DNA from: a virus
IMG/VR virus record: IMGVR_UViG_3300033145_001721
Coordinates: 1-64,000 of that record
Reading direction: 5' to 3' (one strand)
DNA length: 64,000 nt
The translations under genes and the position numbers were made by a program. The notes under the pieces were generated by a model. The model was not told the origin of the DNA and searched no databases. It saw nothing but the letters and a program-made list of their open reading frames with translations. Below, one piece after another: positions 32,191 to 59,940 of the stretch. Numbering within the stretch: position 1 is the stretch's first letter; each line of letters opens with the position of its first letter.

Positions 32191-32237
32191 AAAATAAAAG
32201 GGTTGGAGTGGTAAGCCATGTCCCCCAACCCTTTATT
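32191..32237 (-). terminator. intrinsic terminator
   Basis: Minus strand AAAGGGTTGGGG..CTCCAACCCTTT followed by a U-rich tract. Confidence 0.6.
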
Positions 32238-32534
32238 CACTTGCGTTACAAACTCGTCGTAAGATTGTTTATCTATATACTAGCATGGGGCTAGCCATAC
32301 GTGCTGGGTTTCTGGCACGTTCGCCACACAGTAGCTCTTATTATGTAGCACGCAGAGTCCATTGCAGTTTGAACTATGATTGCTATTGGGAATGTGAAAG
32401 TGCAAAGAAGTGATATAATGAAAATGCATCGGAACCAACATCGGTTCCCAACAACAAACATTTTGTGAAACCACATAAACATCTACTTTGTACTCTCCTA
32501 CTCATTACGGCAAAAACTCTGGACACCTATATTA

Positions 32535-33855: not shown

Positions 33856-34110
33856 CTAAATAACTGGTGTTTCTGGCTTCGGAGACGGCACAGGATGGCC
33901 TAAACGCTGGGCAGCCACATCTTGTATCAGCTGAGCTACAATGACTGCTATAGATAGCCCAAAGATCATCCATGATGGGGCATCCCCTTTGCTCAACATC
34001 CACATACCAAACAACGCTGCGGCAAATTTCTTTTTCATGATGTTTTGAACCGATGCAGAAATCGCACCATCGATCTTCGTTGCTGTTTCCATTTTGTTCT
34101 CCTTGATCAA
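33856..34110 (-). CDS. two-TM holin-like protein
   Basis: KKKFAAALFG.. plus a second TM; GGAG RBS. Confidence 0.5.
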   Translation of the reverse strand: MIKENKMETATKIDGAISASVQNIMKKKFAAALFGMWMLSKGDAPSWMIFGLSIAVIVAQLIQDVAAQRLGHPVPSPKPETPVI

Positions 34111-34119
34111 AATTAAACC

Positions 34120-34178
34120 AAAAGGGGAGTGGCTTTATATCTTCAATAGATGTAAATCAAAGATACTCTACCACTCCC
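34120..34178 (-). terminator. intrinsic terminator
   Basis: GGGAGTGG/CCACTCCC stem plus an inner G-U-containing stem, with UUUU on the minus strand. Confidence 0.6.
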
Positions 34179-34194
34179 AGAACAGGAGGGTGTT

Positions 34195-34779
34195 TTATTG
34201 GGAAACAAGAACATATCCACTACGCCCCAACACATATGTGCCTTCACGCTTCGCTAATTCCATCAAAGCCTTTTGCTTCATACGCATCCGCGCTGTAAAT
34301 GTCTGCAACGTAAGTACTGGGGGTTTGTTTGCTGTATGTACATGCACAATCCAAGTACCCACACGTGATTTCTGATCTGGATGGTCATCTGTGGCTATCA
34401 ACGTTATTGGAACTACTCCGGTTTCCTCACAATGATATACGATTGTATAGTCACCGTGCTCGTTCAACGGAATTGATTCACCACTGTCATAATAATACAA
34501 CGTAACTGTTTGTTGTGTATTCGGATCGCAAGCGCGTCCACAAATCACCAAATCCTGTCCAACATAAGCATCCCACACACCCAAATACAAATGTTGTCCC
34601 GACTCGGGATCAATGGGCACTAGATTTAGATCTACGTTCGCGGGTATATCCAAAAACACTTGTACACACATCGTATCATCATCTGCTTCATCCGCTATGC
34701 TTGGTGTTGTTACTGCCTGAATCCAAGGCAATACACCAAGCACAAGAACAAACACAAATCCAATTAGTCGATATTTCAT
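34195..34779 (-). CDS. secreted Ig-like/cadherin-like protein
   Basis: GAAAGGA RBS before MKYRL; signal peptide; ACDP, LIATDD, NKPPVL. The ORF track's 5' extension runs through non-coding hairpins. Confidence 0.55.
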   Translation of the reverse strand: MKYRLIGFVFVLVLGVLPWIQAVTTPSIADEADDDTMCVQVFLDIPANVDLNLVPIDPESGQHLYLGVWDAYVGQDLVICGRACDPNTQQTVTLYYYDSGESIPLNEHGDYTIVYHCEETGVVPITLIATDDHPDQKSRVGTWIVHVHTANKPPVLTLQTFTARMRMKQKALMELAKREGTYVLGRSGYVLVSQ

Positions 34780-34796
34780 ACATACCATCCTTTCAT

Positions 34797-35120
34797 AAAA
34801 GGACTGGGGGAACTTATCCGGAGACAAATGTACGAATTTGACAAGTCCCCCAATCCCAGAGCAGGAAGAAAAGATAAGTAAACTAAAATGAAACTGGTTG
34901 CCTAGAAGTAAATCACCAAAGCACAAAACCAAAATCACAAAAGGGTTCCCGTCCACCTCGGCAATATATGGGTGTGCTATGTTTCCCGCATCATCGACAA
35001 CCAGTTTCAAAGACTGAAATATTCATTTGTCAAATAAGGATGCTGAATTGCTAAACGAAAAGGCAACCATTCACAATCCATTCACAATAAACCATCCATG
35101 TGCAATTCAGCATCCCTTAT
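34797..35120 (-). ncRNA. candidate small-RNA array: three tandem long-loop hairpins
   Basis: Stems 35038-35051/35102-35115 (14 bp), 34889-34900/34998-35009 (12 bp), 34801-34818/34840-34856 (17 bp with G-U); each followed by a U-rich tract. Confidence 0.5.
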
Positions 35121-35126
35121 CTACCT

Positions 35127-35139
35127 ATATTATCGCATG
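35127..35139 (-). promoter_or_regulatory. putative phage promoter -10 motif CATGCGATAATAT
   Basis: Identical 13-mer at 59913-59925 (+); related copies upstream of several operons. Confidence 0.55.
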
Positions 35140-35149
35140 CCCATTATTG

Positions 35150-36265
35150 CTAAATCAATAACCCCTTGGAACCTACGCAATGAGGACTTAGAAACAAACA
35201 TTCCTTATGCCGATTTGTTTTACCACGTGTTTGCTTTGCGCCCGAAGTATTCCCATAACCACCCCCCGATTTCCAATGATGCGCACGCCAACCATACTGT
35301 AACAACTCCTTGTGTTCATCATAGTAACCAGCCAAAACAATACGATATTTCTTACGATTGCCCCGCTTCAAACACCATTGTTGTACATCATGTGCCACCT
35401 GTAAACTATCCTCAGCATAAATTCCCGCAGTACGATCAGCCACGTCACTATAAGGTGGATCAAAGAAAATACCTACAGGTATTCCAGACTTATGCTGCCA
35501 ATCACCACCACAAACACGTGACCAATCACCACAAACTACTCGAACGTTTCGCAGCCTTTCACTGAGTTCCCTAAACCAATCATAAATTGGCGTCTTGTAA
35601 GGTTCTTGCACACCCTCACCCCTAGCCAAATTTGGTATCGAACCTTTAGCATGTACACCCTCACCCCTAGCCAAATTTGGTATCGAACCTTTAGCATGTA
35701 CACCCTTACCAGCATTAGCCAAATTTGGTCTCTGACCTTTTGCATGTACACCCTTACCAGCATTAGCCAAATTTGGTCTCTGACCTTTTGCATGTACACC
35801 CTTACCAGCATTAGCCAAATTTGGTCTCTGACCGGGACATATCAAACCAGCCCCAATCCAACAAGAGGCTGCCCATATATAATATCCAGCCAGTTTAGGA
35901 TCGTAGTATTCGTCATCAGCACATAATCGCTCTAGCAACGTTTCAGTGTTAAGATTGAGCTTGCGTTTACGAGCAATCAAATCAGCATGATTAACAGGCC
36001 AATCACACCACTTAGCTACCTCATCGGGATTAGCTTGCAAGCTGCGCCATACGTTAGCAATATGACCATCCTTATCTACTACAGTTTCCACATGCTGTTG
36101 TGGATTCCAATGAGGCCTTGCCAATAATACAGCACACGATCCGCAAAAAGGTTCCAAGTAATGATTGACATTACCCAGAGCCTTCCAAACCCTAGAGGCC
36201 ACTGTGGCTTTACCACCAAAATACGAAAATGGGGCTTTCAAACATTTCGACATTTTACATCCCAA
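35150..36265 (-). CDS. D12-class N6-adenine DNA methyltransferase with internal repeats
   Basis: YFGGK, YLEPFCGS, FFDPPY. Confidence 0.85.
   Translation of the reverse strand: MGCKMSKCLKAPFSYFGGKATVASRVWKALGNVNHYLEPFCGSCAVLLARPHWNPQQHVETVVDKDGHIANVWRSLQANPDEVAKWCDWPVNHADLIARKRKLNLNTETLLERLCADDEYYDPKLAGYYIWAASCWIGAGLICPGQRPNLANAGKGVHAKGQRPNLANAGKGVHAKGQRPNLANAGKGVHAKGSIPNLARGEGVHAKGSIPNLARGEGVQEPYKTPIYDWFRELSERLRNVRVVCGDWSRVCGGDWQHKSGIPVGIFFDPPYSDVADRTAGIYAEDSLQVAHDVQQWCLKRGNRKKYRIVLAGYYDEHKELLQYGWRAHHWKSGGGYGNTSGAKQTRGKTNRHKECLFLSPHCVGSKGLLI
35606..35833 (-). repeat. coding tandem repeat 3x48 bp + 2x45 bp
   Basis: Encodes (GQRPNLANAGKGVHAK)3(GSIPNLARGEGV..)2. Confidence 0.9.
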
Positions 36266-36840: not shown

Positions 36841-36876
36841 TTATATTCAACCGATAATGTCATCGGATTATTTACA

Positions 36877-37116
36877 TCATTGTATTCTTGTCATCGTAAC
36901 AAAATCACCTTTTTGTTCTATCAGCTTCTTACCACAATGACGACATACAGTCATACGTCCTCTTGGATGTCCCATCCCTGGATTTTTATTCTCTGTCGCA
37001 ATCCAATAAGCCTTATTTTTACAACGCCAACGCTTAACCGGTCCAAAAGACATAAACGTTCCATTCGCCCGCAAACACTGACAACGTTTCAAATCGATTG
37101 GTGTTAACTTTTTCAT
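36877..37116 (-). CDS. Cys-rich hypothetical protein
   Basis: RCQC..RC..CRHC. Confidence 0.55.
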   Translation of the reverse strand: MKKLTPIDLKRCQCLRANGTFMSFGPVKRWRCKNKAYWIATENKNPGMGHPRGRMTVCRHCGKKLIEQKGDFVTMTRIQ

Positions 37117-37119
37117 CGT

Positions 37120-37416
37120 TCATTCTCCCACACATTTCATCTTTTGTACACTTTCACTTGGTTTCTTAGGTACAAACGTCTTGATGATATCAAGCACATC
37201 ATCACACAATAAAACATCAGCCGGACTGTAATATACTACAGTTATTGTTGGAGGCTCATCTGGTATAATTTCCAACGTTAGAGACTTCACATGCCCTGGA
37301 AAATGTTCTCGCAAAGCCCTACCTAATGCCGTATCACTATTCCACAAATCGCATCCTGATCCAAAATAACAAAGTGATTTGGATTTATCATCCTGATTGT
37401 TTGCTTGTGTTCCCAT
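37120..37416 (-). CDS. hypothetical protein
   Basis: AAGGAG RBS; in operon. Confidence 0.55.
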   Translation of the reverse strand: MGTQANNQDDKSKSLCYFGSGCDLWNSDTALGRALREHFPGHVKSLTLEIIPDEPPTITVVYYSPADVLLCDDVLDIIKTFVPKKPSESVQKMKCVGE

Positions 37417-37963: not shown

Positions 37964-38509
37964 TTATCGCACACCCGCAAACACTGACTGAAAACTAGAC
38001 ACAGCTTTATTTCGACGTAGATTGATTGTGCTTTCCGGCCGATCCAAATCCTCACCAATCTCACGATCACATTTGTATTCCATGTACCGCTTATGCAATA
38101 ACAACCAATCAGAAGGGTTGAAAAACCGCTTCCAAAATTCTAATTCATCCTGTAGTTCAAACATGTTTGGTTCTTCTGGCCCCGATATCATACTAACCAA
38201 TGTATTGTATTTACCATCCACTGCCATTTGACTAAATGGTATTTGGTACTTACGTGTTCCAATCTTTCTGGTTTTAGTAAGTGTCCGCACTTTTTCCAAC
38301 ATTGCATAATACATAACACTTTTAACATAAGTATCAAATGGACCTCGATCTTCATTCCATCGTTTGTGACACTTAACAGTAGCCATCAACGCTGCCCCCA
38401 CCAAATCTTCACGATCTATCCACAATCTGCTCGTGTTAAAACAATATGACAATTGCCGTGCTGCGTTCATCGCTTCTGTTGCTTGATGCTCCGTCATCTG
38501 TCCATCCAT
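37964..38509 (-). CDS. sigma-70/ECF-like sigma factor
   Basis: DREDLVGAALM..WNEDRGPFDTY (region 2); LL..RY..DREIGE.L (region 4 HTH). Confidence 0.7.
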   Translation of the reverse strand: MDGQMTEHQATEAMNAARQLSYCFNTSRLWIDREDLVGAALMATVKCHKRWNEDRGPFDTYVKSVMYYAMLEKVRTLTKTRKIGTRKYQIPFSQMAVDGKYNTLVSMISGPEEPNMFELQDELEFWKRFFNPSDWLLLHKRYMEYKCDREIGEDLDRPESTINLRRNKAVSSFQSVFAGVR

Positions 38510-38519
38510 GATTATCTCC

Positions 38520-38960
38520 TTATTCGTAAATGTGTGCTGCTTTTTCCTTGCGTATTAATTCCACCATCAACACGTACGACCAACCGTAACGATTGCATAT
38601 GCTTTTCAAATACTTACAAGACGGATACGAATCTCCCGACTTCCAATGACTCACACGCATATCATCGACACCCAACAATTTTGCTAGTCGTTTGCCTTCC
38701 CCATATCCCCCAGACGCTTTCATTGCTTCCCGCAATACTTCTACGAAAGTCTTTGGATTACTCGATTCTTGGCCTGTTGTAATCCATTGAATCAGTGACT
38801 CCATAGTATGCATCGGAATAGCATGCATAGTCAAATCTTGAATAGAAGTCGAATCGGGTACTAATATTTCAAACACGCGACCACATCGTCGCAAAGATAA
38901 TTTTGAAGATAGCTGAAACTCTTGATAAGCCATATTTATTCCGCAGGAATCCAAGCACAA
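38520..38960 (-). CDS. XRE-type HTH protein
   Basis: LAKLLGVDDMRVSHWKSGDSYP. Confidence 0.65.
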   Translation of the reverse strand: MCLDSCGINMAYQEFQLSSKLSLRRCGRVFEILVPDSTSIQDLTMHAIPMHTMESLIQWITTGQESSNPKTFVEVLREAMKASGGYGEGKRLAKLLGVDDMRVSHWKSGDSYPSCKYLKSICNRYGWSYVLMVELIRKEKAAHIYE

Positions 38961-39799
38961 CGTCCATTTGGATGGTGTGGTATCAATCCATGGGCGTCTT
39001 CAATTTTGTAAACTTCCCCCTCCTGATCCGCACAATATGGACACACACGATCATCACCTGCCGTTGACCATTCTACTTTTGCAGATACCTCTTTCACGCC
39101 CAACAAAGTAAAACTATCAAGCTGTCCCTCAGCATGAGCGTAAACAATCTCTGTCCGTGCAATGGTTGATGCGCGCCCACGCGAAAGCGTCTTAATGGAC
39201 TTTCGCATTTCCCTTGCCACTTTTCTTGCACCTTGTCCATGTGCTACACCATCAGCCAGAATCCGACCCAACTGATTTTTCATTGTGTCAGTCAAACCCT
39301 TCATATTCTCAAATGCTCGCTCGTACAGCATTTCGATTTTGCTAATCATTTCCGGCTGTAAAAAAGCACTCTTCAAAAACTGCTCCTGCGATCCACCATA
39401 CCAAGCAGGAGACACTACCAAGTCAGCTTTGTGTACATCCGTATACGAACGCATCATTCCTTTGTGATATGCTGAATCAACATATGTTGCTGTCCATGCC
39501 TTTTTACCCAACACAGCATCGGTTTCCAAAACACCAGCGTTCACCTGCTGAGTAAGCCACGTTCTGAATTGCTTAACCTTCTGCGGATTAGTCAGAAACT
39601 TGTATTGATGGCGTATAGCGTTTTGCTGCATTGATAATTGAAAAGGTTTTGTCTCTTCCAAACCGAACGCATCCATCGTCACAATTAAATTCCACAACTC
39701 CTTATCCAACCATCGCAACCGCCTACGTATATCTCGCACATAACGCATCCGCAATGAATAAGTGCGGGAAGGATCTATATTCAACCAATGTGCTGGCAT
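38936..39799 (-). CDS. head morphogenesis protein (SPP1 gp7/Mu gpF-like)
   Basis: RASTIARTE, W.TAGDDRVCPYC, PHHPNGRC. Confidence 0.9.
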   Translation of the reverse strand: MPAHWLNIDPSRTYSLRMRYVRDIRRRLRWLDKELWNLIVTMDAFGLEETKPFQLSMQQNAIRHQYKFLTNPQKVKQFRTWLTQQVNAGVLETDAVLGKKAWTATYVDSAYHKGMMRSYTDVHKADLVVSPAWYGGSQEQFLKSAFLQPEMISKIEMLYERAFENMKGLTDTMKNQLGRILADGVAHGQGARKVAREMRKSIKTLSRGRASTIARTEIVYAHAEGQLDSFTLLGVKEVSAKVEWSTAGDDRVCPYCADQEGEVYKIEDAHGLIPHHPNGRCAWIPAE

Positions 39800-44009: not shown

Positions 44010-44056
44010 AACGGTACCACAAACAAGGACTGAAATATTAACACAGGAGGTATCAA

Positions 44057-44614
44057 ATGTCTAGTATGTCTTTACATAAAGACGTAACTGCTGACAAAGC
44101 TTTACACGAAGACATTTCAACCGAAACGTTTGAACAGTGCAAAAATCTAATGTACCAATACGTCTGGAAATTCTACAACCGCTATGGAGGCGATTTCAAC
44201 GACTGGGTCAGTGAAGGTCATCTGATATTCATGAAATGTATAGTCTCATACAACAATAAATATGCTTTCACAACCTGGTTTACATTCAAGCTCCAAAAGG
44301 GTTTCATCTCTGTCATACGGAAAAAATTAGCACAATCGGTACCCAACATCACGTATAACACTAAGCTCACAAAGGCTCTAAACCCCGCATACCACACAAC
44401 ATTCTTCACCAGGCGAGAACAAGTATCTGATCGTACATGGACCCTCCACCAAGTAATCCAATATCCACCACGTGAACTAGATGGTGAAATTGACGCTGAT
44501 GATCCAATCAATACACTAGATGCCATCATGTGGTACTGTGCTACAAAATTCCAATGGACAAAATTACAAGTCCTTGAAAGCCTAATCGAACTATGGGAAT
44601 GCAGTCAACTATGA
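44057..44614 (+). CDS. sigma-factor-like protein
   Basis: Region 2-like: DFNDWVSEG..FMKC..Y...AFTTW. Confidence 0.6.
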   Translation: MSSMSLHKDVTADKALHEDISTETFEQCKNLMYQYVWKFYNRYGGDFNDWVSEGHLIFMKCIVSYNNKYAFTTWFTFKLQKGFISVIRKKLAQSVPNITYNTKLTKALNPAYHTTFFTRREQVSDRTWTLHQVIQYPPRELDGEIDADDPINTLDAIMWYCATKFQWTKLQVLESLIELWECSQL

Positions 44615-52646: not shown

Positions 52647-52751
52647 GTTAGAATGCCAGAATGGAAGAAAAGACTAATCTTGTGTATAGCAGCGTATGTA
52701 GCGTTGCTGTTTTGAAACAATGCATTAACCTCCTTTGGAAAGGCAACAATC

Positions 52752-53324
52752 ATGGCAGCGAAAAAGACAAACAAAACCGCACCGAAGGGAACCCACAAAA
52801 GCGCCCCGAAGGCACCCAAGACTCTGGTCGTGACTCGCAAGAACGGTGTGAGCCTGATGAAGACATTCGGATTCACGGCACCCCACAAGCTCACCAACGA
52901 AAAACTGCTCATGCGGCTGCGTAAAATCGGTCAGTACATGGAAGCGTTTGAGGGCAAGCTGTCTGGTGATGATCAAAAGCTGGTGGACACCATTATCGCT
53001 GCTGGCGATAATATCAGCGTTGACGTCAGCGATCCGGCATTCGCTGAGCCGAAGAACCCGGACGGAAAGAAAACGGATACAAAAAAGAAGTCAGCCAAAA
53101 AGACGGCCAAGAGGATTGATTGCGTATGTGCCATGCTCAAGAAACTACCAGACAAGGGCGCTTCTATCGAGCAAGTGGCGAAGCTCGCCAACCAGATGTA
53201 TGTGAAAGGTGGTGGGGATGACAATGTCAAACAGACCATCCATCACTTGCGTGTGGTGATGCCCACGCTCCAGAATTTCGACATTATCAAAGTTGAGGAT
53301 GGCAAACTCTTTCCGGTCAAGTAA
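52752..53324 (+). CDS. Lys-rich putative DNA-binding protein
   Basis: GGAAAGG RBS; K/A/P-rich N-terminus; wHTH-like C-terminus. Confidence 0.65.
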   Translation: MAAKKTNKTAPKGTHKSAPKAPKTLVVTRKNGVSLMKTFGFTAPHKLTNEKLLMRLRKIGQYMEAFEGKLSGDDQKLVDTIIAAGDNISVDVSDPAFAEPKNPDGKKTDTKKKSAKKTAKRIDCVCAMLKKLPDKGASIEQVAKLANQMYVKGGGDDNVKQTIHHLRVVMPTLQNFDIIKVEDGKLFPVK

Positions 53325-53339
53325 GATTCTTTCTGTTCG

Positions 53340-53381
53340 AAGCCCCGGTCGGTTTTATCACTCGCTGACCGGGGCTTTTTC
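53340..53381 (+). terminator. intrinsic terminator
   Basis: AAGCCCCGGTCGG..CTGACCGGGGCTT followed by a T-run. Confidence 0.8.
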
Positions 53382-53608
53382 ATTGGCCTTCCAAATAGCC
53401 CCTTCTAAGCTGTAGTCCCTCCGCATCCACACCGATATACCCTCAAACGACATATAGCCCACTACGCGGGTCGTCTGTGGCCTAAAATCAAAAGGTATGG
53501 GCTGTGCCGGACGCCCTTTAGCCAGAATATTCTTTGTATTAGTCTGAATTCTCTTCTTTGCGATAATATCTGTAGAGTCCAGTTGATATTTGTTAGGAGC
53601 CAAATTCA

Positions 53609-54658
53609 ATGAAAGAATACAAAAACCCGTTTTGCATACGCCACGCCCACATGAGTTGCCCACTACCAATAACCCTAGAATCCTATTGGGCTTGTGAAGC
53701 TGACTGCCATCACTGCCCAGGTCATAAGCTGAATGAAATATGGGGGAAAGAGCAACGAGTCACTGATCCAGTCAAAGCCATACACAAATTACACAACGCT
53801 CTGCGAAACCCCCACCCACGCAGTCCCCTAGCGGTTGCACTGGCCATGAAGAAGACACTCTGGCTGGGAAGAAAGACTGATCCCTACCAACCGTTGGAGG
53901 CTAGAACTAAAACCACTAGAACCATCGTCCGTGGCTTGAACAAATTGAAGTGGTCGTATGTAGTTTGCTCTCGGTATACTGATCTGATGAGGCGCGATGA
54001 AGATCTATTTCGTCAAGGGCAATCAACATTACTGGTGGAAATCACTCCAGGTGGAGAAAGTGATTGGTCTTTATTTGAACGTAAGCGAACTACCCCAATA
54101 GAATTTCGATTGTCAGCAGCTGCTCGTTGGAATGCTCTTGGTATAAATGTTGGTGTTCGGGGAGAACCTTTTATTCCCGGTTATCATACACCTAAACAAT
54201 TTGAAGATATGCTGCGAAGGCTGAAAAGCTATGGATTGTATAGCTACAATACATACAATCTCCATCTGAACGAATACAATGCACGCAGGTTGAGCAGTAT
54301 TGGATTGGACATAGAAAAGATTTGGCATCATAATCAAGATCGGTTGTGGCGACCGATACAACGCCAGCTTTGTGAAATAGCTGACAAACAAGGTATCATT
54401 CTAGGCTGTCCCGATTTCGTCAACGTGCCAAAAGGATGGTGCAGTCGTACCAATACGTGTTGTGGTGTATCTGTACCTAACCCATTCAAATTCAATACAC
54501 ACTGGTGGCGCAGGCTTTTGCAAAATGGTAAAACCCCTGAACAAACCATCAAGAAAACATGGGAAGGTATAGGTACAGAGGATGATCAGCAGGAAGGTCG
54601 AGCGATAATATTAGGAACGAGTAAAAACAAATATACAATAAAGGATGCTGAGTTATGA
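53609..54658 (+). CDS. radical SAM protein (SPL/SplB-like)
   Basis: CEADCHHC; GRKTDPYQP.E; RL.A..L..G..V.VRGEPFIPG; C-terminal CCG. Confidence 0.8.
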   Translation: MKEYKNPFCIRHAHMSCPLPITLESYWACEADCHHCPGHKLNEIWGKEQRVTDPVKAIHKLHNALRNPHPRSPLAVALAMKKTLWLGRKTDPYQPLEARTKTTRTIVRGLNKLKWSYVVCSRYTDLMRRDEDLFRQGQSTLLVEITPGGESDWSLFERKRTTPIEFRLSAAARWNALGINVGVRGEPFIPGYHTPKQFEDMLRRLKSYGLYSYNTYNLHLNEYNARRLSSIGLDIEKIWHHNQDRLWRPIQRQLCEIADKQGIILGCPDFVNVPKGWCSRTNTCCGVSVPNPFKFNTHWWRRLLQNGKTPEQTIKKTWEGIGTEDDQQEGRAIILGTSKNKYTIKDAEL

Positions 54659-55380
54659 TCTATACTATTGGAAACCAAAAGTTGGATATACCTGAAACCG
54701 GATCAAAGCGGAAGATACGAACACCACGTCAGGTTGTACCATGGCGGGACATGGCTGAAACTTGTCGCAATGTAGATGCAATTTGCAGCATTATTCAAAA
54801 ACCTCCGTGTACAATTGTGGACGGTATAGCGCGTGCTGGATTTTGGGGTGCTGTGTTTCGTAACAGGTGGCCCAAATGTAAACTGCTGATGAATGGAGAG
54901 AAAGAAGATTGCATACGTGTTCTCAAACAAAATTTCCCTCAAGATAGACACGTTCAAAAAAATATCAAACATTGGTGTCCTCCCGTATCTGATTTAGCCA
55001 TATTAGATTTTGATAAGTTCACACTGAAAAAGATGGACCAATGGGAAAGGGTTTTGTCTACATGGGCGGCAAGAACGCAGCACTTTATATTTGTGGATGG
55101 TGCTTGTTTTGGATTTAAGTTTGGTACATTAAAATCCTACAATATAAGCAATCCCAATGAGTATTACTATTTGTTGAACGAGCGTTTGAAAAAAATTATA
55201 AGCAAAAGAATTGTAGCTGTATCTGCATTTGGTAACGCTGCTACAATTCTTATGCAAGACCGACACCCCCGCAAAATCAAATTTGTACCCCCAACAAATT
55301 TATCTTTATCACGGGGAAATAAAGTCTACAAATTCAACCCCAATCCTAAAAGGTCTAGGCTTGGATTAGTTAACAAATGA
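54655..55380 (+). CDS. hypothetical protein, possibly Rossmann/MTase-like
   Basis: IVDGIARAG, DLAILDF. Confidence 0.4.
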   Translation: MIYTIGNQKLDIPETGSKRKIRTPRQVVPWRDMAETCRNVDAICSIIQKPPCTIVDGIARAGFWGAVFRNRWPKCKLLMNGEKEDCIRVLKQNFPQDRHVQKNIKHWCPPVSDLAILDFDKFTLKKMDQWERVLSTWAARTQHFIFVDGACFGFKFGTLKSYNISNPNEYYYLLNERLKKIISKRIVAVSAFGNAATILMQDRHPRKIKFVPPTNLSLSRGNKVYKFNPNPKRSRLGLVNK

Positions 55381-56372
55381 TAAATTGGACTGATGTATTG
55401 TCGGATGTTCAAGAGTTCAAATGCAAGAAAAAGACTCTTGGACAGCTAAATTGCTTAGCTGTTGATTCTCTATACGGATCAATGTGGGGACTCAATCATC
55501 GATACATGACTTTGCAGCAAGCTCTGACCAAAGATTTTTCAAGTATAACTGCTTACGCAATTCGTCGCATTCATCGCTTACTGGAAATTGGTCCTGTTTC
55601 ATTTCGTCCTCGCAAACTTCCAAAAGTTCGTCGTATAGGATTCGGCACATATGGATGGAAGTACGACTCTGAACTCATAGCTTTAGCGGTCAAGCATAAC
55701 CTTCTGATTGATACTGCCGAAGGTTATGGCTATGGCAAAGTGGAAACTGAATTAGGCAAAGCTTTGGTACATCACAACGCTGAAGTCACTACCAAGGTAT
55801 CACGATCTCACATGTCCCCAAAAGCTTTGCCATCAGCTGCACTCCGCAGCCGTAACAAACTTGGACTTATTCCTCACTACCAACTCCACTTTCCTCATAG
55901 CCTATATTCCGATGAGCAAATTGGGCAGTCGTTAGTACAAGTCCGTGAATCCAAAACGATCCAATCTATTGGGCTTGGCAATTGCAGCGTAGATATGATT
56001 GAATCTATGCAAGCTTTTCTGTCAGATTATTCTGGTGATGTTATTCGTAGTGTTCAAATGCGATACAATTTGGCCGACCGAAGAATTGAAAATGCATTGA
56101 TGCCTTATTGTCGAAAAAGAGGCATTGCGATAATAGCTTACAGTCCGTTGGGTCAAAAGTTTTCTACTTTGCAAACACCCACATTGAGTCATATAGCGCG
56201 GCGCTATCATTGTACGACGGCACAGATTGCTTTGGCTTGGGTGTTGCGAATGCCTGGGATTATACCTATCCCCCGTACTAATAATGTAGATCATTTGAAA
56301 GACAATATAAAGGCACTTAGTATTCATTTGACCAAAAACGAAATACACAAACTCAACAACGCTTATTTATGA
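55377..56372 (+). CDS. aldo/keto reductase
   Basis: IGFGTY, IDTAEGYG..E..LG, TKV, LHFP, IGLGN, AYSPLG, AQIALAW, IPIP. Confidence 0.9.
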   Translation: MINWTDVLSDVQEFKCKKKTLGQLNCLAVDSLYGSMWGLNHRYMTLQQALTKDFSSITAYAIRRIHRLLEIGPVSFRPRKLPKVRRIGFGTYGWKYDSELIALAVKHNLLIDTAEGYGYGKVETELGKALVHHNAEVTTKVSRSHMSPKALPSAALRSRNKLGLIPHYQLHFPHSLYSDEQIGQSLVQVRESKTIQSIGLGNCSVDMIESMQAFLSDYSGDVIRSVQMRYNLADRRIENALMPYCRKRGIAIIAYSPLGQKFSTLQTPTLSHIARRYHCTTAQIALAWVLRMPGIIPIPRTNNVDHLKDNIKALSIHLTKNEIHKLNNAYL

Positions 56373-56379
56373 GGATGTT

Positions 56380-57780
56380 ATGGACTACTATGAATTGCGA
56401 TCCGTTTTAAGTCGCATTATCCCACGTGAAACTTCATTGGTACCAACACACCATATGGTTAACGCCATAAAAGAAAAAGGGCGCAAACAAAACTACTCTG
56501 AATATAAATTGAACCAAGATAAATGGGTGAAACAAGAACGACTATTGAATGATCAAGAGATTTCTTCATTTATTGAAATCAGCTGCCGTGCAGCTGCGTG
56601 TCCAATGCCACTGAATTTGGATATCTGGGATGGTATTCTTTGTCCTTATGGATGTAAATACTGTTTCGCCAATCTATTTCGCGCATCTCTTTACACCGCC
56701 TTTTTTGATAATAGCAAAACACTAGGGCTGCGACATTGTAACCCTACAAAATACAAAAAGGAAATGGACAAACTTTTCAAGCATCGGGGAGAAAATCCAC
56801 ATGACGTTTCCAATTCTTTAGCCAAAGCCATCGCCATGGGATTGCCTATTCGCTTCGGAATTCGCTTTGAGGATTTTATAAAAGCAGAAGAACGACATGG
56901 CGTCAGCTTAGAGTTAATGAATTATTTAGCTGATCACAAATATCCCCTAATGATCAACACTAAATCAGATTTGGTATGTCATGATGAATATGTAGATGCC
57001 ATGATTCGAACAAAATCAGCTGTTCACGTAACACTCATATCCAGTAACAATAAAATCTTGAAAGCGTTAGAGCCCAATGCACCTTCCTATGAACGCCGAT
57101 TGGAAGCTATGCGAATTCTTTCTGCTGCAGGTATCAGAGTTGTTGCCCGCATTGAACCCTATCTGGTATATGTTACAGATCAAAAGGAGGATGTTGAAAA
57201 ATACATCAAAGACGTTTGGGATGCAGGTGTACGAAACATCACCTTTGATAACTATTCGTACAGTGCGAAAAACCCAGGTATCCGTCAAGCGTTTCGGAAT
57301 GAAGGTATTGATTTTGATCGGTTGTTTTTGTTGGGGTGTGATTCACAACCACTCAGCAGCTTATTGTTGGGTTCGTTTATGCAGATGTTTCGTGATGCAG
57401 GTTTCAGCTGTTCGACTTTTGACATGGGTAATGTTCCGGATAACGATCAGAATATATGTTGCGAAGTCGGTGATTGGTTTGGTTCCGGATTCAATTATGG
57501 TTGTGCTGTTATGGCTGCCAGATTCATTCAAAGTCGTAAAGGGCGTGAAACAACATGGAAGAATTTTGAAAGTTGGGTGGATGATCACGGAGGTTTTCTC
57601 CGTGATACATTGAAGCATGAAGTTCATCAACTGTGGAATTGCGAAGGGCTAGATGCATACAGTCATAGTTGGGCTAGAGGATTGGAAGCTGTGGGCAGCG
57701 ATAGTTCAGGTTTAGTGTGGGTTTGGCATGATACGGACTTCCGATTGGATCTCTACGATAATATAGCTAGAGGTTTGTAG
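56380..57780 (+). CDS. radical SAM protein (paralog of 53609..54658)
   Basis: CPYGCKYC; INTKS; LEPNAPS...RL.A...L..AGI.V..RIEP; C-terminal CCE. Confidence 0.85.
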   Translation: MDYYELRSVLSRIIPRETSLVPTHHMVNAIKEKGRKQNYSEYKLNQDKWVKQERLLNDQEISSFIEISCRAAACPMPLNLDIWDGILCPYGCKYCFANLFRASLYTAFFDNSKTLGLRHCNPTKYKKEMDKLFKHRGENPHDVSNSLAKAIAMGLPIRFGIRFEDFIKAEERHGVSLELMNYLADHKYPLMINTKSDLVCHDEYVDAMIRTKSAVHVTLISSNNKILKALEPNAPSYERRLEAMRILSAAGIRVVARIEPYLVYVTDQKEDVEKYIKDVWDAGVRNITFDNYSYSAKNPGIRQAFRNEGIDFDRLFLLGCDSQPLSSLLLGSFMQMFRDAGFSCSTFDMGNVPDNDQNICCEVGDWFGSGFNYGCAVMAARFIQSRKGRETTWKNFESWVDDHGGFLRDTLKHEVHQLWNCEGLDAYSHSWARGLEAVGSDSSGLVWVWHDTDFRLDLYDNIARGL

Positions 57781-57815
57781 ATTTCAAAGGTTGAACAAAA
57801 ACGAAAGGTCTGATC

Positions 57816-58241
57816 ATGGGTAAGGGACATACAGCACAAAACAGCAATTTAAGATTTACAAAGGCTGAAATGTGTTTACTTCTCAGTATATTTATACGGG
57901 GATGCCCGCCTCGTGTAATAAGATATATAGCAGAGATATTAGGTCGTTCGATTGAATCTATAGAGAGAGTAAAGCGTCGGTTATTATACGATGGTAGTGT
58001 TGAAGACTATGGGCACCCCCGTAGTTATTTGCAACCACCCAATTCCAACCCATGGACGACTTTAACAGGTTTCGCAAAGGAATACATTGAGGTACAATAT
58101 TTTAATCCTCATATCAAATGTTCCGTTTCAAAAATCAGCCAAAAAACAGGAATTCCAGAAGCTATTATTCAAGCAGAAGTTGACAAAGAGATCATTTCAA
58201 GAAACCGAAAAATCAAGAGGCACAAAAAGTTACTATCATAA
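57816..58241 (+). CDS. hypothetical HTH protein
   Basis: IAEILGRSIESI; ISQKTGIP. Confidence 0.5.
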   Translation: MGKGHTAQNSNLRFTKAEMCLLLSIFIRGCPPRVIRYIAEILGRSIESIERVKRRLLYDGSVEDYGHPRSYLQPPNSNPWTTLTGFAKEYIEVQYFNPHIKCSVSKISQKTGIPEAIIQAEVDKEIISRNRKIKRHKKLLS

Positions 58242-58268
58242 CCATCATCTACTAAAAGGGACAACCAT

Positions 58269-59006
58269 ATGAGCAAAATAAATGATCGCATCGAAACTAT
58301 ATTTTCACATGCTGTTGCACTCCAGCAGAGTGGACGCTTACGCAATACAATTTATTGTCGAGGATCATTTGTCTACATCTTCAACCAAGATCATACAGTG
58401 TTGATGCGATTCACTATTCCCTCTGCAAGTGTCAAATTCAAACACCCTATAAGCTTCTTTGCCAACGACTATGACAGTCGTCGTTTCACGGAGAAAGATG
58501 GGTGCATTTGTTTTATCCAAACAAGTAGTGACAACACCCACGAATATGTGCGTGTAAAATCTTGCCGCGTCCCGAATTTCAAAACCACAGACATCAAAAA
58601 GCTATTCGATAAGTATGAATCAAGATTTAAGAAGGTCAATGGCGTTGAAATATCTGAAGCTTTTTGTCAGTTTCTCGACAGTGCTTTGAGCCATGTCGAA
58701 TTCAGTAGTAAAGACGGAAAACTTATTGGCGTCCAGCGTAACATTTACACGGGTGCGGCAACAACAATCACACAAAATAAGAAGCAACAAAAACTTTTGA
58801 CATCGGAATCAAAATTACGAAACTTCGAGCCTATCGGATTGCGAACCAATGACTTCACAGCAATATTTACATTTGCAAAGTCTGTACAATTTTGGTTCGG
58901 CCGCAAGGGCACCGTTCGTTTTTGCAGCAAAGATCCTCGTATGCCCTTTGTGGGTTTCATTAGCCAATGTATGTATGATGAATTAGGAGTAGACTATGGG
59001 AGGTAA
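58269..59006 (+). CDS. hypothetical protein, possibly sliding-clamp-like
   Basis: 245 aa beta-rich; NQDHTVLMRF; context only. Confidence 0.35.
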   Translation: MSKINDRIETIFSHAVALQQSGRLRNTIYCRGSFVYIFNQDHTVLMRFTIPSASVKFKHPISFFANDYDSRRFTEKDGCICFIQTSSDNTHEYVRVKSCRVPNFKTTDIKKLFDKYESRFKKVNGVEISEAFCQFLDSALSHVEFSSKDGKLIGVQRNIYTGAATTITQNKKQQKLLTSESKLRNFEPIGLRTNDFTAIFTFAKSVQFWFGRKGTVRFCSKDPRMPFVGFISQCMYDELGVDYGR

Positions 59007-59157
59007 ATCACGAAAGACCGGGGGCATCAGTCTCAAACTGATCCAGAAAATAGCAAACCGAACCAATACAGGTAAAAGCTGTGGAACCAAAAAAAATCAA
59101 TCAAAACAGCGTCTTGGTTTATCTGAAAATTCTACAGATGACAAAGGTTCATCCTAA
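58996..59157 (+). CDS. 53-aa basic peptide (not in ORF track)
   Basis: AGGAG RBS; MGGKSRKTGGISLKLIQK.. Confidence 0.55.
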   Translation: MGGKSRKTGGISLKLIQKIANRTNTGKSCGTKKNQSKQRLGLSENSTDDKGSS

Positions 59158-59857
59158 TTTTTGGACAAGCAAAGACTATTTACATTACAGCGAAACTCCT
59201 TGGATTGAAAAGGATGGATTGTCTGGGTGGTGGGATGAAACAGAATGGCTGATTCCACCCTTAGATAATTTTGGATGTTTTGTAACGGCAGGTGTAAATG
59301 TATACGCTGGATGGCCTCAAATGCATAACGAGGATACTGATAAGTTTGTAGACCACCAATTCGTTTACAATCCTCAGGATTTCCTAAAAATGGAAGGTCA
59401 TTCATGGCAAACCTTCCGTAAAAACGTACGGAAGTTTCCTAGGCGAAACTCAGGTGATTTACAATACAGACGGTTCGACAACGAAGAGGGTTTGGAAAAA
59501 TTGCTTGTGCTTTGGGCTCAAGGCCGAACAATCTTTGATCCCGATACTATGGTAAGAACTATAATGCGTAGTCCCAACCGAAAAGGATTGTTCTTGAATG
59601 ACTGTTTGATTGGTGTCAACGTATGGGATGAAAACTGGATGTATGTGAACTACCGTTACTGCATTGATGATAGTTCAGGATTTCTCAATGAGTATTTGCG
59701 ATGGAGGTTTTATACAGATGAAGAAATTTTGAACAAAACCAAATTAGTCAACGATGGAGGTTCACTAGATTCTGATACACTCTATCGTTTCAAAATGAAA
59801 CTCAACCCTGTAACCGTATGGAAAGTCTATAGTATTAGGAGTATTAACAATGGCTAA
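59081..59857 (+). CDS. DUF2156/MprF-C-like GNAT-fold aminoacyl transferase
   Basis: FVY..DF..MEG.....RKNVRKF; VNDGG.L....LYRFKMKLNP; start may be 59138. Confidence 0.6.
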   Translation: MEPKKINQNSVLVYLKILQMTKVHPNFWTSKDYLHYSETPWIEKDGLSGWWDETEWLIPPLDNFGCFVTAGVNVYAGWPQMHNEDTDKFVDHQFVYNPQDFLKMEGHSWQTFRKNVRKFPRRNSGDLQYRRFDNEEGLEKLLVLWAQGRTIFDPDTMVRTIMRSPNRKGLFLNDCLIGVNVWDENWMYVNYRYCIDDSSGFLNEYLRWRFYTDEEILNKTKLVNDGGSLDSDTLYRFKMKLNPVTVWKVYSIRSINNG

Positions 59858-59903: not shown

Positions 59904-59940
59904 ATAAAATTCCATGCGATAATATATTATAATTGCACAC

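Follow-up and report, generated by a model that had tools for sequence, protein, structure and literature searches.

Several described systems resemble the phage element reported here. In leaders that sequester the Shine-Dalgarno (SD) sequence, including the RNA thermometers of the fourU and ROSE types, which are short (40-100 nt), a U- or CU-rich strand pairs with the SD through A-U and G-U pairs beside a stable hairpin. RNase III acts on about two turns of near-perfect double-stranded RNA, and in the phage leaders and intergenic hairpins that it processes (T7 R sites, the lambda N leader), as in the stalks of ribosomal RNA, long near-perfect stems close large loops. In leaders controlled by CsrA/RsmA (glgC, pgaA), GGA is exposed in an apical loop or overlaps the SD. 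The lambda late leader (PR' - 6S transcript - tR') and the put RNAs of HK022 are structured, non-coding transcripts that begin at a promoter and pass through terminator-like units before the genes served are reached. To our knowledge, structured RNAs of uncultured phages have barely been catalogued. Here we analyze positions 34797 to 35139, minus strand, of a 64,000-nt stretch of the viral record IMGVR_UViG_3300033145_001721 (positions 1 to 64,000; "the window" below), where a promoter-like motif is followed by three hairpin domains and then by the gene of a secreted protein. Comparison of two lineages, the window and one relative, argues strongly for a conserved sense-strand structured RNA of no known family. 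With moderate confidence, we read it as a ~345-nt structured 5' leader of the downstream secreted-protein mRNA, which would control translation or stability in cis.

The locus shares features with each of these systems and matches none fully. A CU-rich strand is predicted to pair with the SD beside a stable hairpin, as in thermometers. Here, however, the SD is base-paired by prediction only and the partner differs between the lineages; the leader is also far longer (~345 nt), has two further large domains and matches no sequence family. Long stems closing large loops recall RNase III-processed leaders, and hairpin 3 with its extension (~29 pairs) lies beside the ribosome-binding site (RBS), by analogy with sites where cleavage unmasks a start, but stems 1 and 2, with 14-16 pairs, are at the short end for RNase III substrates. 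Both lineages are predicted to display GGA at the apex of domain 1, and in the window AAGGAUG overlaps the SD; unlike in CsrA-regulated leaders, the relative has no GGA left at its SD (AAAGGCGG). The likeness to the lambda late leader is taken up below, together with the rival explanations.

Three hairpin domains kept in two lineages

Three closed stems lie on the minus strand, within the coordinates given in a preliminary description of the locus. Stem 1 (35038-35051 / 35102-35115) has 14 perfect base pairs and a 50-nt loop. As RNA it reaches 16 pairs (35102-35117 / 35036-35051) and closes hairpin domain 1 (35036-35117), whose 50-nt interior is predicted to form a weak extended hairpin. Stem 2 (34889-34900 / 34998-35009) has 12 perfect base pairs and a 97-nt loop; extended to 14 pairs (34996-35009 / 34889-34902), it closes domain 2 (34889-35009) around a 93-nt interior. 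Stem 3 spans 34801-34811 / 34846-34856 as DNA, and as RNA it comprises 17-18 pairs (34840-34857 / 34801-34819), 3 of them G-U, around a loop of ~20 nt (domain 3, 34801-34857). The U-rich tracts noted after the stems are also present, with 4-5 U each in both lineages (UUAUUUG, AUUUUAGUUU and CCUUUUAUG in the window; the relative has counterparts of all three).

The predicted fold of the minus-strand (sense) RNA has a free energy of -118.7 kcal/mol (z -4.95), which 0 of 100 shuffles matched, and is thus structured beyond chance. For the plus strand (antisense), the corresponding values were -82.8 kcal/mol and z -3.4. Inverted repeats of at least 12 nt within 150 nt are rare, with only 14 across the 64-kb window, and stems 1 and 2 are the only ones among them with a spacing of at least 50 nt, so that their clustering is not due to chance. 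The three hairpins have no repeat in common, which leaves a tandem array of like units, as had been proposed, unsupported. Rfam searches with the whole window, with the region alone and with the relative gave zero matches at the gathering score. The best sub-threshold hits, G2 (19-25 bits versus a threshold of 70) and plant or animal microRNA precursors (13-18 bits), are of the unspecific kind that any hairpin may give.

Relatives were sought among GenBank phages by DNA, in IMG/VR by three flanking or nearby proteins and two DNA patterns, in JGI metagenomes, in a 5.8-billion-protein database, and in GTDB genomes with the pattern of the linker described below. Over all these searches, one other lineage was found, which had been recovered identically from several metagenomes (L006, L027 and L028). 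A covariance model of domain 2 (R1) was applied to every locus retrieved and to five complete records of relatives, and it matched only the window and the relative. More distant phages with the methyltransferase that is encoded upstream of the hairpins (L007-L023) have other genes downstream and no similar structure. With two distinct lineages, covariation statistics are not possible, and the conservation of the stems is given as counts of pairs.

Between the two lineages, protein identity is 83% for the downstream gene, 89% for a head-morphogenesis gene, and 75% (tblastn best segment) or 86% (aligned columns) for the methyltransferase. In the adjacent gene, 30% of the four-fold degenerate sites differ. 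The relative's leader nevertheless has the same architecture, with all three stems kept. Its hairpin 1 is a perfect 15-pair stem with a 52-nt loop in the same place, compared to 16 pairs in the window; the two stems share only the core UGCUG/CAGCA, and hand reading finds four flanking pairs changed on both sides and one changed on one side. Among the 13 consensus pairs of hairpin 2, one shows a compensatory A-U to G-C change, one is changed on one side and none is broken. For the 17 pairs of hairpin 3, the corresponding numbers are 2 changed on both sides, 6 on one side and 0 broken. The three G-U pairs that stem 3 has in each lineage become A-C mismatches on the other strand, and the sense fold is the stronger one, which bears out the minus-strand orientation first suggested from these pairs. 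All pairs of two stems were thus kept through ten changes. Together with the strand asymmetry, this argues strongly for selection on a sense-strand RNA structure rather than on a DNA-level element, and the compensatory changes support the promoter-preceded structured RNA of the preliminary description.

Outside the stems, conservation is confined to short blocks, and the loops are otherwise unalignable between lineages. In the domain 1 loop, only the 9-mer AAUGGAUUG (35074-35082) is common to both; it is apical, and its GGA is placed in the predicted apical loop in both lineages. Domain 2 keeps an inner helix of AUAUAUUGC (34961-34969) with UGUGAU (34934-34939) and a tail, AUUUU, that follows the domain. 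In domain 3, the loop and arm sequence UGUCUCCRGAUAAGUUC is kept. Between domains 1 and 2 lies the linker AUUUGACAAAUGAAUAUUUCAGUCU (35011-35035, minus strand), which is identical at 24 of 25 positions in the relative (consensus AUUUGACAARUGAAUAUUUCAGUCU). It contains a perfect TTGACA, could form a weak 7-pair mini-hairpin, and is predicted not to be especially unpaired. Its sequence is unique in the window. The linker pattern had four matches in bacterial genomes of GTDB, about the estimated chance number, without similarity beyond the matched block; two of these matches have a promoter-like context.

Two indels set the relative's leader apart: ~40 nucleotides are added ahead of hairpin 1, after the promoter, and 15 nt are missing from the stretch that joins hairpins 2 and 3. 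The insert (L006 5003-5048) carries AUACAAGGAUGU, near the 5' end, which we take to resemble a published high-affinity CsrA site. It also carries a perfect AAGGAGG with no start codon at usable distance, and a degenerate copy of the stem-1 5' arm of the window. In the window, the loop of hairpin 1 contains an exact 11-nt tandem duplication (sense AUUGUGAAUGG twice, 35067-35088), which creates a second AUGG(A/U)UUG motif and is not present in the relative. Hairpin 1 was also considered as an element akin to miniature inverted-repeat transposable elements. This was rejected, as its arms occur nowhere else in IMG/VR and are homologous to those of the relative through the shared core.

Promoter motif and translation start

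The motif CATGCGATAATAT at 35127-35139 (minus strand), with which the region begins, is indeed recurrent and promoter-like, as had been noted. An exact second copy is located at 59913-59925 (plus strand), and allowing up to 2 mismatches there are 9 matches versus 2.4 expected, a number reached in 0 of 100 shuffles. The putative promoter (35127-35158, minus strand) consists of a -35-like TTGATT (35153-35158), an 18-nt spacer and a TG-extended -10 GATAAT within the 10-mer core GCGATAATAT (35127-35136). The core has 8 exact copies in the 64-kb window and further ones in the rest of the genome; recurrences were located at 35136, 36341, 37970, 40078 and 32538 on the minus strand, at 53005, 53560, 54602 and 59916 on the plus strand, and at genome position ~65657 (plus strand). 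The copies are often followed by ATAGGT and have no conserved -35.

At every copy whose downstream sequence was read, a start codon in gene-sense orientation follows at ~25-80 nt, so that the motif behaves as an mRNA promoter. It is probably the main promoter class of this phage for accessory and replication genes. At genome position ~65657, for example, the motif is followed by ATAGGTAGA, ahead of an ordinary short 5' untranslated region (UTR). The copy in the leader region is the only one that is followed by ~345 nt before a start codon. The motif and the initial transcribed sequence ATAGGTAGATA (to 35118) are identical in the relative. No copy of the recurring motif was seen between the hairpins and the downstream start codon. 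A second promoter at the TTGACA of the linker was considered and rejected as a sigma-70 promoter, as neither lineage has an acceptable -10.

The downstream gene (34195-34779, minus strand) encodes a secreted protein of 194 amino acids with the signal peptide MKYRLIGFVFVLVLGVLP. A homologue was found in the relative and nowhere else searched, and the protein has no Pfam or PHROG family. A language-model protein atlas gave a PKD/Ig-like assignment (0.91) that is a lead only, and the AlphaFold model (predicted local distance difference test score 33.6) is unusable.

The translation start region (34777-34802, minus strand) comprises a mini-hairpin CCUUU-UAUG-AAAGG (34789-34802), the SD AAAGGAUGG (34785-34793) and the ATG (34777-34779), and hairpin 3 ends ~20 nt ahead of the start codon in both lineages. 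SD accessibility was predicted thermodynamically in equal windows (-120 to +40) for 93 genes called by a crude open reading frame (ORF) rule. The SD of the downstream gene had an unpaired probability of 0.06, the lowest of the 93 (median 0.48), and the value stayed at or below 0.22 over every folding window tried. In the window lineage, the CU-rich tract UACUUAUCUUUU (34869-34880, minus strand) is predicted to pair with the SD region AAAGGAUGGUA. This pairing would extend the base of hairpin 3 into an almost uninterrupted helix of ~29 pairs, many of them A-U or G-U. The relative has lost the CU tract through the 15-nt deletion and has CUCCUCC there instead. Its SD is less occluded, with a predicted unpaired probability that varies from 0.23 to 0.45 with the folding window, and is predicted to pair elsewhere. 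Masking of the SD by leader structure is therefore plausible, but its detail is not conserved.

A proposed cis-acting leader and its alternatives

We favor a leader that acts in cis on the secreted-protein gene. Transcription would start at the GCGATAATAT-type promoter and read through into the gene, producing three independently folding domains joined by the conserved linker, with the last domain abutting the RBS. In the window lineage, pairing of the SD with the CU tract 5' of hairpin 3 would mask the start region in the ~29-pair helix. The leader could thereby keep translation of this moron gene low until the structure is opened or cut. The trigger might be temperature, cleavage by an RNase specific for double strands (RNase III, for example), or a protein that binds the RNA at the linker or at the apical loop with GGA. 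Transcript stability may also benefit from the closed domains and the 5'-proximal hairpin. Attenuation, by termination of some transcripts at the U-tracts, may be a further layer of control, and processing is conceivable.

Several observations argue for this reading. A scan of 34000-36000 detected no canonical intrinsic terminator. Together with the absence of another motif copy and of a convincing -10 after the TTGACA, this leaves the gene without another evident promoter, and a 5' leader is the more economical explanation than the cassette of phage small RNAs first proposed. The same promoter type serves mRNAs with short leaders elsewhere in the genome, hairpin 3 adjoins the RBS in both lineages, and the SD of the downstream gene is the least accessible of the 93. 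Other observations weigh against the leader. Covariation is statistically out of reach with two lineages. The SD-masking partner predicted in the window is not conserved, and the accessibility values depend on thermodynamic prediction and a crude gene call. The U-tracts and the very long perfect closing stems would be superfluous for a simple translational leader and fit terminated or processed RNAs equally well. Finally, the nearest cultured phages by large terminase (33% identical) infect unrelated hosts, which leaves neither a host nor a trans-acting factor to name.

Explanations that do without an RNA are far less probable. If the inverted repeats were protein-binding or cruciform sites in DNA (for recombination, replication, packaging or as operators), one would expect the perfect palindromic arms of stems 1 and 2 and perhaps also the z of -3.4 for the plus strand. 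A protein site would keep its sequence, however, whereas here arm sequences change while pairing is kept. Furthermore, 8 of the 17 pairs of stem 3 differ, in a way that is pairable only with sense-strand G-U (each lineage otherwise has 3 mismatches), and no recombinase or replication gene is adjacent. We therefore consider a DNA-level element very unlikely. Even less likely, to the point of being hardly credible, is a coding function, either of 34780-35010 as an N-terminal extension of the secreted protein or of a micro-ORF in the linker as a leader peptide. Upstream of the start codon, the reading frame of the gene stays open over 77 codons in the window; in the relative it does so over 114, and database gene calls there give a protein of 308 amino acids. 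Yet the preliminary description had named conservation of this extension as protein as evidence against an RNA, and the extensions have no amino-acid similarity between the lineages: blocks conserved as nucleotides are translated in a different frame in each, and the lengths of the indels are not divisible by three. Long open frames are likelier here in any case, as stop codons all include an A, a base that makes up only 23% of the sense strand. The SD, ATG and signal peptide at 34779 are conserved and mark the true start of the downstream gene. The micro-ORF (11 codons from ~35024) has similar first 11 residues in the two lineages, with an ATG start in the window and a GTG start in the relative. 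An SD is missing, however, and not one third position differs, a pattern of constraint at the nucleotide rather than the protein level. Judged from its sequence, the leader peptide is unconvincing. The lack of protein conservation, the kept stems and the G-U pairs that form only in the sense strand together support a conserved sense-strand RNA structure.

Among explanations that invoke an RNA, stand-alone or processed small RNAs are possible, though we consider them unlikely. A precursor would be terminated at the U-tracts or cut in the stems by an RNase III-type enzyme, releasing one to three trans-acting RNAs. Several features are in line with this: a run of 4-5 U behind every stem of either lineage, the resemblance of the long perfect closing stems to processing stalks, the conserved linker, and the GGA in the predicted apical loop of domain 1. 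The downstream gene would be left promoterless, however, and loops of 50, 97 and ~20 nt exceed the short loops of terminators. An intrinsic terminator normally has a G+C-rich stem followed by a U-tract, and its short loop (about 3-8 nt) lets the hairpin form during polymerase pausing; the loops of 50 and 97 nt are far beyond this, and the terminator scan was empty. Nor did the anti-SD role proposed for the loops hold up, as duplexes between the whole leader and 92 RBS regions were no better than with dinucleotide shuffles (as good in 43 of 100 for the best and 36 of 100 for the third best). The CU-rich words exist in the window; UGUCUCC in domain 3 is also kept in the relative, whose loops lack GUUGCCUUUUCG and CCCUUUUGUG. 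Similarly, AAAGGCAAC does occur in the RBS region at 52739-52747, but a 9-mer complement is at chance level, with more than 100 expected genome-wide by a rough estimate. A sponge for a CsrA-like protein had been suggested from AUGGA, which is found twice in loop 1. However, GGA is not enriched (10 versus 7.7 +/- 2.0 expected, a count reached by 93 of 500 dinucleotide shuffles), which argues against a sponge and sets the RNA apart from CsrB/RsmZ. A single GGA lies within a conserved apical loop (domain 1), and a search of the phage found no encoded CsrA or Hfq. A cascade of terminators under antitermination is less probable still. In this case, the hairpin and U-tract units would stop transcription until a phage factor allowed read-through, in the manner of lambda PR'-tR', with either of two sigma-like proteins, a CII-like regulator or the linker RNA, acting like a put site, as candidate factor. 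Three successive stem and U-tract units between promoter and gene in both lineages, the conserved linker immediately after the first hairpin, and regulators encoded just upstream (a sigma-70 region 2 protein, 37964-38509, and the CII-like protein, 38520-38960) would suit such a cascade. However, hairpin loops far longer than those of real terminators make efficient intrinsic termination doubtful. In contrast to the lambda late leader, the site is not at an early/late boundary but in an accessory island inside the head-gene block, and the genes downstream are small accessory genes. In family scans of the neighboring genes, no protein resembled Q, N or LoaP, although no search aimed at antiterminators was made.

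One target prediction for a small RNA concerns the linker. Among 92 5' UTRs, its best predicted duplex is with the sigma-factor-like gene at 44057 (site 44024-44039, plus strand). The duplex has 16 pairs, one of them G-U, and an energy of -21.9 kcal/mol, which was equalled by 1 of 100 shuffled linkers. The core GGACUGAAAUA of the site is kept in the relative's 5' UTR, and 14 of the 16 positions are kept there by plain conservation. There is no compensatory change, however, and in one pair both bases have changed so that pairing is lost. Conservation of the target site does not exceed that of the flanking sequence, and the linker is not predicted to be open. Since the match was noticed before being tested, it is a lead only. 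There is a slim chance, going by these predictions, that a precursor is trimmed at the long stems into stable RNAs whose linker pairs with the 5' UTR of this sigma-like gene of the opposite replication operon. Another candidate pairing, of the stem-1 3' arm with the RBS of gene 54655 (an 11-mer, 14 pairs with G-U), was dismissed as chance, with ~20 such 11-mers genome-wide. Gene 54655 lies in a cassette that is not present in the relative.

Genomic setting and significance

The record is a complete phage genome of 74,972 bp with direct terminal repeats. The leader occupies a minus-strand gap of 370 nt between a D12-class (Dam-like) DNA methyltransferase gene (35150-36265, minus strand; Pfam PF02086) and the ORF with the signal peptide. 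The gap is located in an island of small accessory genes, which code for the CII-like regulator (just upstream of the leader region), a sigma-70 region 2 protein, the methyltransferase, and secreted or membrane proteins. This island interrupts the head genes, with the head-morphogenesis gene (38936-39799) on one side and scaffold/protease-like, decoration and capsid genes on the other. Terminase and portal genes are found just upstream. There are two separate sigma-70 region 2-like proteins. The one in the island (37964-38509, minus strand) is a marginal Pfam match (23.8 bits versus a cut-off of 24). The other (44057-44614, plus strand) is encoded by the first gene of the rightward replication operon and matches PHROG 351 (E 4.8e-7) and Pfam Sigma70_r2 (E 2.6e-4, 21.1 bits, below the cut-off of 24). 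A search for transfer RNA and transfer-messenger RNA genes found none.

Other differences between the two phages concern accessory content; their core is syntenic at 76-85% DNA identity. The relative lacks a 6.5-kb block at 53.3-59.8 kb (window 53323-59830 versus G001, L033 7248-7377) and has ~2 kb extra upstream of the methyltransferase region (window 36873-37166 versus L032 12693-14663). The methyltransferase gene itself contains an in-frame 48-bp tandem repeat (35623-35833, minus strand; 4.5 copies, 94% match) encoding 16-residue units (GQRPNLANAGKGVHAK and a variant), whereas only ~1.5 units are found in the relative (324 versus 371 amino acids). The repeat is thus an insert of variable copy number in the middle of a D12-class enzyme. 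A canonical intrinsic terminator at ~32195-32240 (minus strand), with a 10-pair G+C-rich stem, an 18-nt loop and a U-tract, provides an example of the ordinary terminators of this phage; it is followed by a TG-extended -10-like sequence, TGGTATACT.

A literature search for comparable phage elements returned nothing specific. Two known lineages and a host that could not be named limit the general importance of the element for now. Without a match to any Rfam family, it represents an unclassified phage RNA with natural compensatory variants, ahead of a lineage-specific secreted protein in a self-promoted accessory island. It is also compact and experimentally tractable, with one promoter, three helices and a single start site suited to a reporter. 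If the leader gates this gene, it would illustrate how a phage moron can be controlled after transcription. If instead small RNAs target the phage's own sigma-like gene, this would be a new phage regulatory circuit, in which pairing of the linker at 44057 would act as an RNA switch on a phage sigma factor and couple the accessory-gene island to the transcription program of the phage.

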